From a virus, in the IMG/VR virus record IMGVR_UViG_3300040801_005898: a stretch of 34,672 nucleotides of DNA; one strand, 5' to 3'. Position numbers and translations under genes: made by a program. Under the pieces are notes generated by a model. It had not been told where the DNA came from and made no database searches. It saw only the letters and a list, made by a program, of their open reading frames with translations. Below are positions 23,930 through 27,089 of the stretch, one piece after another (within the stretch, counting starts at the first letter, position 1; every line of letters starts with the position of its first letter).

Positions 23930-24023
23930 AGTAAAATCGCTGTCTTGGGTTTTGCCTTGATGGGCCATAACTGCCCTGTTGCTCATAAGAGTTCGATATA
24001 TTTCTCTACACTAGCACGGCTAA

Positions 24024-24278
24024 CTAGCGATCGTCAATATTAGGGTATTCACTTAAATACGCATCAAGAGCTTCGATCGCAAATTCTCTTACTTTTTTCA
24101 AGAGATATTTTTGTTCTTCCCCTTCTGGTAAAGGAGAGACTATTTTCGCGATCGCATCTATTTGGTCTTGATAAAAACGCAAAGTGGTTGTCTTTATTTG
24201 CTTTTTCCTACCACCTTTGCTTTCAAAGTGGTTTTTCCCATGCTCTCTGGTGACTTTTTCATATCCTGGATTGGCCAT
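24024..24278 (-). CDS. Putative ribbon-helix-helix regulator (alternative start at 24329)
   Basis: KTTTLRFYQDQIDAI...KVREFAIEALDAYL gives a strand-helix-helix pattern; divergent from the early operon. Confidence 0.55.
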   Translation of the reverse strand: MANPGYEKVTREHGKNHFESKGGRKKQIKTTTLRFYQDQIDAIAKIVSPLPEGEEQKYLLKKVREFAIEALDAYLSEYPNIDDR

Positions 24279-24385
24279 AACATTATCCCTTTTTGTTACA
24301 GCGTACCACGCTGGAAACAAATTTGCCATTAGTCAAACTCATATTCAGATGGCCCAACTAATGGCCCAAAATATTTATCGAAAAT

Positions 24386-24432
24386 AAGGGGTGTTACCCC
24401 CTTGACGGCAACGTTACACGCTGCTTATATAA
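24386..24432 (+). promoter_or_regulatory. Promoter with a palindromic operator overlapping the -35 box
   Basis: AAGGGG-TGTTAC-CCCCTT (24386-24403) overlaps TTGACG (24402-24407); AT-rich -10 region at about 24425-24433. Confidence 0.45.
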
Positions 24433-24463
24433 AAATATAAGGCGAAAAAAAGGACACAAACTA

Positions 24464-24676
24464 ATGAAACCTTACTTAACAAAAGAACAGCGGCAAGAAA
24501 TAGATCGCTACTACCCAGATTTAGAAGAGCGAAAAAAGATTATAGCCGCAGCTCAAAAAGCAGGCATCAAAGGGTTGGAAAATCCGAATTTACTGATCTC
24601 TTTGGCACGAGCTTCGTTGGCTTTTAACTTTATTTGCGAAAACGAGCAACAAACATTAGGAGAAAACAATGGCTAA
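24464..24676 (+). CDS. Hypothetical protein
   Basis: 70 aa, AAGGA SD, overlaps the next gene. Confidence 0.6.
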   Translation: MKPYLTKEQRQEIDRYYPDLEERKKIIAAAQKAGIKGLENPNLLISLARASLAFNFICENEQQTLGENNG

Positions 24677-25049
24677 TTTCAATACAGAAAAAACTCAAGC
24701 TTTCATCAACCAAGCTTCCCAAGTCTTTAATCGGTACGGCTACAACTCGGTTTTTCGCCATCACTGTAGGATAACGGTTTTAGACGAAGACTATGCCAAA
24801 CTCGGAGAGATTCATTGTGTTTCTGACCCTTCCGAAGTACCAGAAAACATTGAAAATGAAGCCATCGGATACAGTGATGACGGTAATTTTTTCTGGTATC
24901 TCGATTCTGACTTGGAGGATGCCATTTTTGAATACGAGGACGACGCCGAGGACTATGGCGACGGCCATGATTTAATTCGAGATTTGGTTAGTGCCGCAGA
25001 TGGTCCCCTGAAACTGGAAGCGATCCAACTGCAACTGCAAATTAGTTAA
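24669..25049 (+). CDS. Hypothetical acidic protein
   Basis: 126 aa, AGGAG SD, strongly D/E-rich. Confidence 0.65.
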   Translation: MANFNTEKTQAFINQASQVFNRYGYNSVFRHHCRITVLDEDYAKLGEIHCVSDPSEVPENIENEAIGYSDDGNFFWYLDSDLEDAIFEYEDDAEDYGDGHDLIRDLVSAADGPLKLEAIQLQLQIS

Positions 25050-25057
25050 ACTCTCTC

Positions 25058-25124
25058 TCCGCCTGACGAGCCCTGCCGGACACGGGCGAAACTCCCCAAG
25101 GGTGGGGAGTCGCGGGAGTCCCGC
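25058..25124 (+). ncRNA. Type I hammerhead ribozyme, copy 1
   Basis: Stem I TCCGC/GCGGG; CTGACGA (25063-25069); stem II GCCC/GGGC; GAAAC; stem III TCCCC/GGGGA; GTC cleavage triplet at 25109-25111. Confidence 0.9.
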
Positions 25125-25160
25125 AAACCAAACCTTATAAACTTAAACACTGTAAAAAAA

Positions 25161-25406
25161 ATGAGCAAAACAGCATTAAAAGAAGCAGTCAGGAGCGGTT
25201 CTTACCGCCAACTGCAAAAAGCATTAGTTCCTTTCAAAGTTTCTCGCAAAGGGACTAAGGAACAGTTACTAATTACAGCCCGCAAACTTTTGGGAGATGC
25301 TGCATATTTCATTCCTGATAGCGTACCGATTCCTACGCTATCAGAAGAAATTGCCACAGACCGAAAGTGGATTAAAAAAGTCATTAAAGACAATTTCTTG
25401 GAATAG
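25161..25406 (+). CDS. Hypothetical basic protein downstream of hammerhead 1
   Basis: 81 aa; YRQLQKAL...VSRKGTKEQL resembles a SAP or Rho-N-like nucleic-acid-binding motif. Confidence 0.6.
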   Translation: MSKTALKEAVRSGSYRQLQKALVPFKVSRKGTKEQLLITARKLLGDAAYFIPDSVPIPTLSEEIATDRKWIKKVIKDNFLE

Positions 25407-25956
25407 CTGGCTACTAAGACAAGGCATCCCTACAGTTACCACCAGAGAACCTGGCGGCACCGAGTTGGGCGCTACTTTGCGTTCTTGTCTGTTAGATATT
25501 GATGAAGCGATCGCCCCCCAAACAGAACTGCTACTATTTGCCGCCGATCGTTCCCACCATATCGAAACAGTCATCAAACCCAGTCTGGCAGAAGGGAAAA
25601 TCGTTTTGTGCGATCGTTTTACCGATTCAACCATTGCCTATCAAGGTTCCGGCAGAGCAAGAAACATTGACATGATAAACCAGCTTAACCAGATTGCCAC
25701 AGGAGGCATCCAAAGCGACCTGACATTATGGTTAGATGTCGATGTTGAAGTGGGGTTGACAAGAGCCAAAAAGAGAAAAGGAGATAGCGATCGGATAGAA
25801 CGAGAATCTAAAGAATTTCACCACCGGGTCAAACAAGGATTCAATCGATTAGCAAAAACCAACCCCCGCATTCATAGAATAGACGGAAAACTTCCAGTGG
25901 CAGACGTGCGGGATAAGGTTCAGAAAGTTGTTAAGCAATGGTTAGTTTATAATTAA
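25403..25956 (+). pseudogene. tmk: Thymidylate kinase lacking the N-terminal P-loop
   Basis: REPGGT, LLFAADR, LCDRF.DST.AYQG and DRIE motifs are present, but no GxxGxGKT occurs upstream in frame. Confidence 0.75.
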
Positions 25957-25980
25957 ATTTCAATCCAATATTTACATAGC

Positions 25981-26499
25981 ATGATAATTACACCTAGCAA
26001 CATTGAGTCTTTTCATTCTTTAAATGACAATGGATTAAAATTTTTGCAATTTATGAACGCTTTGGTTCATGCGAATTGCTGTCATCTTGGCTTGCTCATT
26101 TCAGATATTCAACAGAGTGGAAGAGTCTGCCTTGAAACTTCTGGAGTGGATACTCAAATTTCTGTTGCGTTGCCAGACATAGAAATATTTTCTGCACCTA
26201 CTTGTTGGAAATATGTCGAAAAGTTACCATCACTGAGAGACACGATCGCTTCCCAAGAAAACATAGAAAAAGCAATCGCTTCTACAGTAGGAAAAAGGTA
26301 TGCTTCCCAACTCATCAAGCAAGGGTATGGCTACCGCATAGCCACGCCCCAAAGACTATCCGATAGTGAAATAGCAGAATGGCATAAAATATTTGCTCCA
26401 TTGACAAATAACAATTTTATGCTGTTTGGCGCGGTAGAGATTGCAGAATGGGCAAACAGATATTCTAGAGTTAGCGATCGCTTCTGGACTTTGGATTAA
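25981..26499 (+). CDS. Stand-alone degenerate restriction-endonuclease-like domain
   Basis: ITP..I...F..F.NAL..A....G....I..S.RV...SGVD...PTCW.Y...WAN resembles the N-terminal PD-(D/E)xK domain of large NTPase defence proteins. Confidence 0.45.
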   Translation: MIITPSNIESFHSLNDNGLKFLQFMNALVHANCCHLGLLISDIQQSGRVCLETSGVDTQISVALPDIEIFSAPTCWKYVEKLPSLRDTIASQENIEKAIASTVGKRYASQLIKQGYGYRIATPQRLSDSEIAEWHKIFAPLTNNNFMLFGAVEIAEWANRYSRVSDRFWTLD

Positions 26500-27089
26500 G
26501 GCACAATCGAATGAACCCACATCGAGCTTGCATTCTCTGGGTCAAAACTTGCATCAAAGTAAAGTTGCTGTGCTTGGGCGAGACTCCATGCAGAACAAGC
26601 CGCAGCAATAGCTCTTTCAGAGAAACGCAAGTTTTTTCCCCTCATCTGACTGCCAACATTCAAACCATATCTCCAGGGCATCTCAGTAAAGAATGGTTCG
26701 CCATAAGGGTCGTGAACGATGAATTGCTCCAATGAGCGATCGTAACCTTTGACAACAAAGATATGACCCGGTTCAGTCGCATAACCATGAACAATAACCG
26801 GACCATCTTTGTCAATAGAATTGCGGATATTTTCTAACGTTCCATTTAACATCAAAATATCCTTTCTATTATATGACAGAATAATTTGCCTTATTCCATC
26901 AGGAGTAAATCTATTAGAATTGATTTGTTGCGATCGCTCCCAAACCTGGTCTTCTAATTGAGACATCGAACCATCACCAACGATGCCTCTATACCGCAAA
27001 CACATTGCAACAGATGTTACGTTACAAGCACCGAAAGGGTCATAGATATTATTGAGTTGGTTCAAATAAGGAACATCAAGGTCTTTCAT
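26496..27089 (-). CDS. C39-like peptidase, candidate lysin
   Basis: Likely start 27089 (MKDLDVPYLNQ); GACNVTSVAMCL, GHIFVVKGYD and VHDPYG motifs. Confidence 0.8.
   Translation of the reverse strand: MKDLDVPYLNQLNNIYDPFGACNVTSVAMCLRYRGIVGDGSMSQLEDQVWERSQQINSNRFTPDGIRQIILSYNRKDILMLNGTLENIRNSIDKDGPVIVHGYATEPGHIFVVKGYDRSLEQFIVHDPYGEPFFTEMPWRYGLNVGSQMRGKNLRFSERAIAAACSAWSLAQAQQLYFDASFDPENASSMWVHSIVP

Follow-up and report, generated by a model that had tools for sequence, protein, structure and literature searches.

Type I hammerhead ribozymes are known from prophages, where Perreault et al. 2011 (PMC3088659) described elements with a canonical core, an open helix I, and a pseudoknot of at least 4 bp that replaces the loop–loop contact, placed between the genes of phage operons in several copies per phage. 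Clustered prophage hammerheads cleave both in vitro and in vivo, and their proposed role is the cutting of long transcripts into gene-length mRNAs. The same work found pseudoknots in hammerheads of all three types and showed that fast cleavage at 0.5 mM Mg depends on them. The purpose of genome-encoded hammerheads in bacteria and phages was considered in a 2019 review (PMC6765202) to need additional work.

Three other systems are relevant here. The RAGATH-1 or "PK hammerhead" (Weinberg 2015; crystal structure by Zhan et al. 2024, PMC11300833) also combines the hammerhead core with a pseudoknot contact, the partner of which is the loop of an extra hairpin located 5′ of helix I, while helix II is about 1 bp long. 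RiboJ, which was engineered from a plant satellite ribozyme and consists of the sTRSV hammerhead and a 23-nt hairpin placed before the ribosome-binding site, removes the upstream RNA and leaves an mRNA that starts with a hairpin near the ribosome-binding region; the transcript level rises about 2-fold and the protein level 2–10-fold (PMC6206723). Finally, the bridge RNA of the IS110-family element IS621 owes its 5′ end to a promoter that is re-formed at the circle junction and not to a ribozyme (Durrant et al. 2024, PMC11208160).

The hammerhead considered here, HH1 (25058–25116, + strand), was found in a 34,672-nucleotide stretch of phage DNA (the window, taken at its full length). It resembles the prophage elements of Perreault et al. 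2011 in its canonical core, open helix I, pseudoknot of at least 4 bp, location between operon genes, and multiple copies. All conserved hammerhead core bases and three helices are present in the type I order. The element begins 8 nt past the stop codon of a 126-aa gene, and the predicted cut after C25111 lies 62 nt downstream of that stop (25047–25049) and 49 nt upstream of the ATG at 25161. An earlier sequence-only reading had proposed a full core with all three stems 8 nt after the stop of the gene at 24669–25049, with the cut 49 nt before ATG 25161; direct reading of the bases confirms all of these coordinates. The features of the locus are as follows.

24669–25049 (+): upstream gene, an orphan of 126 aa, taken from the list of open reading frames, with its TAA stop at 25047–25049.
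25058–25062 (+): 5′ strand of helix I, UCCGC, pairing with 25112–25116 (U-G, C-G, C-G, G-C, C-G); its CCGC is nearly invariant in the family.
25063–25069 (+): catalytic core C3–A9, CUGACGA, read directly and fitting the consensus CUGANGA.
25070–25087 (+): helix II hairpin, GCCC/GGGC, with 25070–25073 paired to 25084–25087 and G25070:C25087 as G10.1:C11.1; helix II covaries in relatives.
25074–25083 (+): 10-nt loop of helix II, carrying the pseudoknot strand GGAC (25078–25081).
25088–25091 (+): core G12 A13 A14 together with A15.1 (GAAA), read directly.
25092–25109 (+): helix III hairpin, CUCCCC-AAGGGU-GGGGAG; helix III covaries in relatives.
25110–25111 (+): U16.1 and C17; the cut is predicted after C25111 by its position relative to the core.
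25112–25116 (+): 3′ strand of helix I, GCGGG, the predicted 5′-OH end of the downstream RNA.
25118–25121 (+): GUCC, partner of the loop II GGAC by complementarity; its first base is at +6 from the cut, the most frequent position among relatives.
25112–25124 (+): alternative hairpin GCGGG-AGU-CCCGC, 5 bp and −8.5 kcal/mol when taken alone, which excludes helix I and the pseudoknot.
25125–25160 (+): leader, in which AAACCAAAC (25125–25133) is common to the copies HH2 and HH3, followed by A-rich sequence up to the ATG, with no clear Shine-Dalgarno sequence.
25161–25406 (+): downstream gene, an orphan of 81 aa, followed by a thymidylate-kinase-like gene.
34568–34626 (−): second copy, HH2, scoring 83.5 bits with the covariance model R1 described below; its helix II is the same as in HH1, and it lies 35 nt before the ATG at 34537.

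The core of HH1 thus contains C3–A9, G12 A13 A14, the A15.1:U16.1 pair, and a position 17 that is not G, as expected for a type I hammerhead. Helices II and III are closed by loops and helix I is open, with lengths of 5, 4, and 7 bp for helices I, II, and III, respectively. The seven pairs of helix III (25091–25097 with 25104–25110) include A15.1:U16.1, that is A25091:U25110, and enclose the loop AAGGGU. With its 4 bp, the pseudoknot connects the loop of helix II with the side of helix I, which places HH1 among the pseudoknot-stabilized hammerheads. It does not belong to RAGATH-1 (RF03152), as there is no extra 5′ hairpin, helix II is a normal 4-bp helix with a 10-nt loop, the pseudoknot partner is found 3′ of helix I, and HH1 scores one third of the threshold value. 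Judged from its bases, HH1 is a real, canonical pseudoknot-type hammerhead and an additional member of the known phage class, with cleavage as a prediction. Two features depart from the account of Perreault et al. 2011: the host here is a cyanobacterium, and the near-invariant CCGC/GCGG helix I is accompanied by a second CCGC that would replace the first one after cleavage, which is not described there.

A chance origin of the motif was considered and rejected. A loose type I descriptor, in which all stems have at least 3 bp, returned exactly two sites in the window, HH1 and the minus-strand site at 34568–34626, compared to a mean of 0.03 in 200 dinucleotide shuffles of the window. The covariance search with hammerhead models that had been suggested from the sequence did not bear out the assignment: at the Rfam 15 gathering thresholds no hammerhead was reported in the window, a tRNA being the sole report. 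In E-value mode, the best score for HH1 was 17.9 bits with RAGATH-1-hammerhead (RF03152), against a cut-off of 56.3, and Hammerhead_II gave only 12.9 bits. The same models gave zero matches on fourteen loci with relatives of the ribozyme, including contigs with 3–6 pattern-matched copies. The Rfam 15 models derive from known hammerhead sets, and the missing score of the HH1 class looks like a gap in these models; a gap of this kind has been reported in a 2026 preprint for a different hammerhead cluster.

Since Rfam gave no usable hammerhead match, a covariance model of our own was needed. Model R1, built for the ribozyme alone from the four copies in the genome, found 34 sites in 22 of 101 related genomes. 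In the resulting alignment, 94.2% of the cells at paired positions can pair, against 76.4% in shuffles and 35–51% when the partners are slid, and eleven pairs show changes on both sides; the observed values were reached in none of 500 shuffles. The variation sits in helices II and III, both of which show compensatory changes, while helix I is almost always CCGC/GCGG and therefore uninformative for covariation.

Viral relatives were gathered by a pattern search in which only the core and the CCGC/GCGG helix I were fixed, which yielded more than 114 contigs with up to six copies in 4 kb. Together with the cyanobacterial sites they form a family set of 104 unique ribozymes, in which helix I as CCGC/GCGG is fixed by the collection pattern. 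When the fetched viral loci were searched for type I hammerheads in general, CCGC/GCGG was present in 96 of 103 cases, a figure that is not usable as an estimate of generality because the loci themselves had been fetched with the same pattern. In a very large bacterial genome collection the pattern matched 120 loci, only 29 of which have credible helices II and III, so that most of the 120 matches are due to chance. A Shine-Dalgarno-like motif and a start codon within 70 nt of the cut are found in 72 of the 104 relatives, at a median distance of 40 nt.

The pseudoknot of HH1 is formed by GGAC of loop II and GUCC located two bases 3′ of helix I. With only 4 bp, this contact is short in HH1 itself. 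At least 4 Watson–Crick pairs between loop II and tail positions 5–22 can be formed in 59% of the 104 unique relatives, compared to 19% with shuffled tails and 25% when each loop is matched with the tail of another member. In 45 of 61 cases the first base of the partner is at +6 or +7 from the cut, a pattern into which HH1 falls with +6, and 29 distinct pairs of complementary sequences of at least 4 bp are represented. Long covarying pseudoknots are found in named cyanobacteria (GACACA:UGUGUC, GACCC:GGGUC, and GGACUC:GAGUCC). The suggestion of a GGAC:GUCC pseudoknot, first made from HH1 alone, is thus supported by family-wide complementarity, many covarying pairs, and a fixed offset. In the copy HH3, the loop of which reads UUAGAUA, a pseudoknot partner is not visible.

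The downstream RNA begins with the hairpin GCGGG-AGU-CCCGC (25112–25124), which shares its 5′ arm with helix I and C25120–C25121 with the pseudoknot partner. The active fold and the hairpin are therefore mutually exclusive, as had been proposed for the hairpin and helix I. An exact CCGC at 7–44 nt after the cut is present in 74 of the 104 relatives, against 13.2 expected and a maximum of 22 in 500 tail shuffles, which places its conservation far above chance; other orderings of the same letters occur 14–25 times in the tails. The downstream CCGC is followed by A in 57 of the 74 cases. When G-U pairs are allowed, a terminal helix of at least 4 bp starting from the first base of the 3′ product can be formed in 91 of 104 relatives, compared to a mean of 50 and a maximum of 62 in 300 shuffles.

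The first four pairs of this capping hairpin are invariant, and the fifth forms in only 26 of the 74 cases, which is about the chance level. Within the sequences compared, covariation support for the hairpin comes only from the longer helices of an IS110-linked subgroup, in which the terminal helix reaches up to 9 bp and positions 5–9 covary. As the first four pairs never vary, CCGC(A) could be conserved for a role that depends on its sequence and not on pairing. The requirement that GCGG fit two partners would account for a near-invariant helix I in a family whose helices II and III drift freely. No description of a conserved CCGC-GCGG-CCGC alternative pairing was found in Perreault et al. 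2011 or in the other literature searched.

According to nearest-neighbour folding energies, no fold is better than the hammerhead only when the transcript ends at 25116–25119, before CCCGC is transcribed. Once CCCGC is included, the hairpin state has an energy of −27.7 kcal/mol and the hammerhead secondary structure −24.8 kcal/mol, the pseudoknot not being counted. These energies support a switch that is ordered in time, with the hammerhead best at first and the hairpin state better once CCCGC has emerged.

On this basis, HH1 is likely to function as a type I hammerhead between two genes of a rightward phage operon, operating by folding, cutting, and strand exchange. During transcription, the upstream CCGC would pair with GCGG into helix I, and the loop II GGAC would pair with GUCC just 3′ of it, the resulting pseudoknot keeping helices I and II side by side. 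The RNA would then cut itself after C25111, so that the upstream mRNA would end in the folded ribozyme with a 2′,3′-cyclic phosphate and the downstream mRNA would begin at G25112 with a 5′-OH. In the last step, the next-transcribed CCCGC (25120–25124) would capture GCGGG from the ribozyme to form a flush 5′-terminal hairpin. Helix I and the pseudoknot would thereby come apart and the products would be set free; the cut would become irreversible, and the downstream mRNA would keep a capped 5′ end 36 nt before the start codon.

A 5′-terminal hairpin and a 5′-OH should both hinder 5′-end-dependent decay by RNase E and RNase J. What we infer here comprises cleavage in vivo, the folding order, the release of the products, protection from 5′-end-dependent RNases, and any effect on expression, and stabilization of the downstream mRNA and blocked re-ligation would follow in the same way. 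The functional proposal of the sequence-only reading, a self-processing cassette that would give a stabilized mRNA, appears reasonable. Such a product is like that of RiboJ, in which the upstream RNA is also removed and a hairpin also comes to lie at the mRNA start. The hairpin of RiboJ is a separate element and not an alternative partner of helix I, whereas in the natural cassette the helix I strand is re-used, so that capping and disassembly of the ribozyme would be a single event.

The stretch from which HH1 derives is phage DNA, with leftward genes that include the portal, head protease, major head protein, and other virion genes. HH1 is a spacer element in a rightward block of five genes (70-aa, 126-aa, 81-aa, Tmk-like, and 172-aa) that diverges from the head operon, and its neighborhood contains thymidylate kinase-like, thymidylate synthase-like, DnaN-like, and UvrD-like genes, which constitute a nucleotide-metabolism and replication module. 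HH1 lies within this module, and it is plausible that the operon is an early one, as had been proposed. No terminator-like or promoter-like site was found between the two flanking genes (25049–25161, no U tract and no consensus sites). The absence of a terminator-like site fits with the two genes being on one transcript. The mRNA of the 126-aa gene would end at the ribozyme. For the same lack of a U tract and consensus sites, the possibility that the GC-rich hairpins are a terminator or promoter was rejected.

The 126-aa protein has no Pfam or PHROG family, no homologue of either flanking protein (126 aa and 81 aa) was found among 100 related genomes, and a blastn search of 24000–27000 against 50,697 phage records gave zero matches. 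The host is taken to be a cyanobacterium because a related genome from the same GTDB order has 2 kb of sequence identical to Floridaenema aerugineum. In the thymidylate-kinase-like ORF (25297–25956), the match to Pfam PF02223 begins only at profile position 18, and a P-loop can be seen neither further upstream in the same frame nor in the 81-aa ORF that overlaps it; a metagenome copy of this gene was called as 163 aa. The gene at 27076–28554 (−) encodes a 492-aa protein in which a thymidylate-synthase-like domain is fused to DUF4346, a pterin-binding domain, and which may be a pyrimidine hydroxymethylase for making modified phage DNA.

The genome that holds the window (7.06 Mb, 443 contigs) contains four copies of the hammerhead. 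HH1, HH2, and HH3 are located on one contig of 106.9 kb (C3), with HH3 at its other end, and HH4 is on contig C259; HH1 and HH2 lie on opposite strands and converge. The core bases are intact in all four copies, and helix II differs among them in a compensated manner (GCCC/GGGC, GCCCGG/CCGGGC, and GUCGC/GCGAC). All four have the GCGGG...CCCGC hairpin with little or no change. In HH1–HH3 the 3′ product is the same over its first 22 nt, and HH4 differs within the hairpin by one change in the loop (GCGGGAAUCCCGC) and then diverges. The helix III stems of HH1 and HH2 are identical, and the loop AAGGGU of HH1 (25098–25103) is the exact reverse complement of the loop ACCCUU of HH2 (34581–34586, −), which looks like the inversion of a hairpin loop. 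A kissing contact between the two loops was considered, but inversion by template switching is the simpler reading, given the HH3 loop GCCCUU and the self-complementary stems.

The assembly breaks at this repeat. Contig C3 ends inside HH2 (window position 34610) and begins next to HH3, the end of C259 shares sequence with the start of C3 downstream of their copies (L007 1480–1696 and L003 1–160), and a JGI metagenome contig, the only other contig found with the 81-aa gene, has its first base within the HH1 hairpin, at 41 nt from the ATG (L156 1–41). In a sister genome (G003, L013 1501–2180), two phage-type copies 615 nt apart on the same strand flank a single 204-aa orphan gene, with GCGGGAGUCCCGCA after both. 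It is conceivable that the repeat acts mainly at the DNA level, as a portable junction of about 80 bp at which gene modules are exchanged between related phages by homologous recombination, the ribozyme being secondary or decaying. The further copy at the other end of the contig that ends inside HH2, the sequence shared by C259 and C3 downstream of their copies, and the metagenome contig that breaks inside the HH1 hairpin speak for such a junction. We nevertheless regard it as unlikely to be the main function: the core bases are intact in all four copies, the helices covary in a way that is not simple drift, and the pseudoknot and the second CCGC are kept in very distant phages without DNA similarity. 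A role as a DNA junction is compatible with a ribozyme role and does not explain the conserved RNA features.

The reading of HH1 as a ribozyme that shapes the RNA downstream of it is also to be weighed against selection on the RNA upstream. The structured 3′ end of the upstream product, with helices II and III and a 2′,3′-cyclic phosphate, could resist 3′ exonucleases, or cleavage could uncouple the decay of the two pieces, the downstream hairpin being incidental. The type I topology keeps the whole ribozyme on the 5′ product, the ribozyme follows the stop codon by 8 nt in HH1 and is near a stop in HH3 and HH4 too, and differential stability of the processed pieces has been proposed by Perreault et al. 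2011 (PMC3088659) and in the 2019 review (PMC6765202). However, the conserved features outside the catalytic core, namely the pseudoknot partner, the second CCGC with its following A, and the short distance to the Shine-Dalgarno motif and start codon, are all on the 3′ product. In the IS110 elements discussed below, moreover, the ribozyme heads a non-coding leader and the upstream sequence is unrelated or belongs to the host, so there it is the downstream RNA that is shaped. An upstream target of selection appears unlikely. The conserved features of the downstream RNA lead to the prediction of an irreversible cut that leaves a hairpin-capped 5′-OH end, which would be a natural counterpart of the RiboJ insulator.

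A third possibility concerns HH1 only. The CU tract at 25055–25064 can pair with 25100–25109 over 10 bp, using the helix III loop and 3′ arm, in a fold of −33.0 kcal/mol that the apparent loop inversion relative to HH2 would have created and that has no counterpart in that copy. This misfold is the minimum-energy fold of 25050–25135, about 8 kcal/mol better than the hammerhead secondary structure (−24.8 kcal/mol), and it is already the best fold when the transcript ends at 25111. As both the misfold and the alternative-hairpin state beat the hammerhead in energy, HH1 could be a poor cutter, with the RNA trapped in the inactive pairing. The local helix III hairpin, with six G-C-rich pairs, should on the other hand form first during transcription, the folding program leaves out the pseudoknot and tertiary energy, and the core is intact. 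An inactive or weak HH1 is quite improbable in our estimate.

A concerted action of paired copies to excise and circularize or splice RNA, as in viroids and retrozymes, can be practically dismissed. In its favor, helix I is the same in all copies, so that any 5′ product could pair with any 3′ product, and the sister genome and many phage contigs contain tandem copies on one strand. Against it, HH1 and HH2 converge on opposite strands, the capping hairpin would oppose re-ligation, and spliced or circular products of clustered prophage hammerheads were sought and none found (Perreault et al. 2011, PMC3088659).

The same hammerhead class was also observed in front of transposases. In 22 of 28 loci from related cyanobacteria, an IS110-family DEDD transposase (PF01548) is encoded on the same strand 150–320 nt downstream of the ribozyme (L012, L014–L017, L019–L022, L024–L030, L032, L033, and L036–L039). 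Nine more cases are found in named genomes, e.g., of Nostoc, Calothrix, Sphaerospermopsis, and Microseira (L158, L164, L176, L192, L220, L227, L230, L248, and L269). The transposases near the ribozyme have a mutual identity as low as 31–40%. The predicted cut in these loci corresponds to the first base of the 5′ stem-loop of the leader, after which come two long stem-loops with internal loops, a layout that matches that of the bridge RNA of Durrant et al. 2024 (PMC11208160). Copies in two genomes have about 11–20 nt in common upstream of the ribozyme before they diverge, and the ribozyme therefore appears to be at the left end of the IS110 element. HH1 is not part of this IS110-leader group: in place of a bridge RNA and a transposase it has protein-coding genes downstream, the 81-aa orphan and the Tmk-like gene. 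No paper on a link between hammerheads and IS110 was found in the literature searched.

As a hammerhead HH1 is itself ordinary; the family, in turn, offers a concrete and cheaply testable mechanism for the role of hammerheads in bacteria and phages. The nearly frozen CCGC/GCGG/CCGC may be a built-in one-way switch of a large hammerhead class and a general "5′-end maker" for mobile elements, a generalization that we put forward tentatively, as a serious possibility. After the cut, the second CCGC would take over GCGG, so that helix I and the pseudoknot would be taken apart and the 5′-OH end would carry a flush hairpin. If this is true, mobile elements place such a module before RNAs that are to be freed from any upstream transcript, these RNAs being single-gene mRNAs in phages and bridge RNAs in cyanobacterial IS110 elements. 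The bridge RNAs could then come from read-through transcription while the element is still integrated.

This side finding on IS110 may matter more than HH1, as it would explain how a correctly ended guide RNA is obtained without a junction promoter, and bridge-recombinase tools could draw on the IS110-linked ribozyme as a natural processing module. It is the link to IS110 and the capping hairpin seen across the family that deserve further study.

Dense arrays of the ribozyme were also observed. In the viral contigs L111, L070, L072, and L118, nearly every small gene is preceded by a hammerhead, a GCGG...CCGC hairpin, and a Shine-Dalgarno sequence, and the same arrangement before small genes occurs in contigs of Clostridia/Clostridiales MAGs (L203, L224, and L226). 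The copy numbers are 6 in 4 kb for L111, 7 in 8 kb for L226, 6 for L224, and 5 for L203. A subgroup lacks the exact CCGC (L070, L097, L103, L118, L151, L203, L224, and L226) and has 3′ products like GCGGGAGCCACAGCUUCCAAAU, in which GGGAGC can pair with GCUUCC to give a different hairpin that would likewise sequester the pseudoknot partner.
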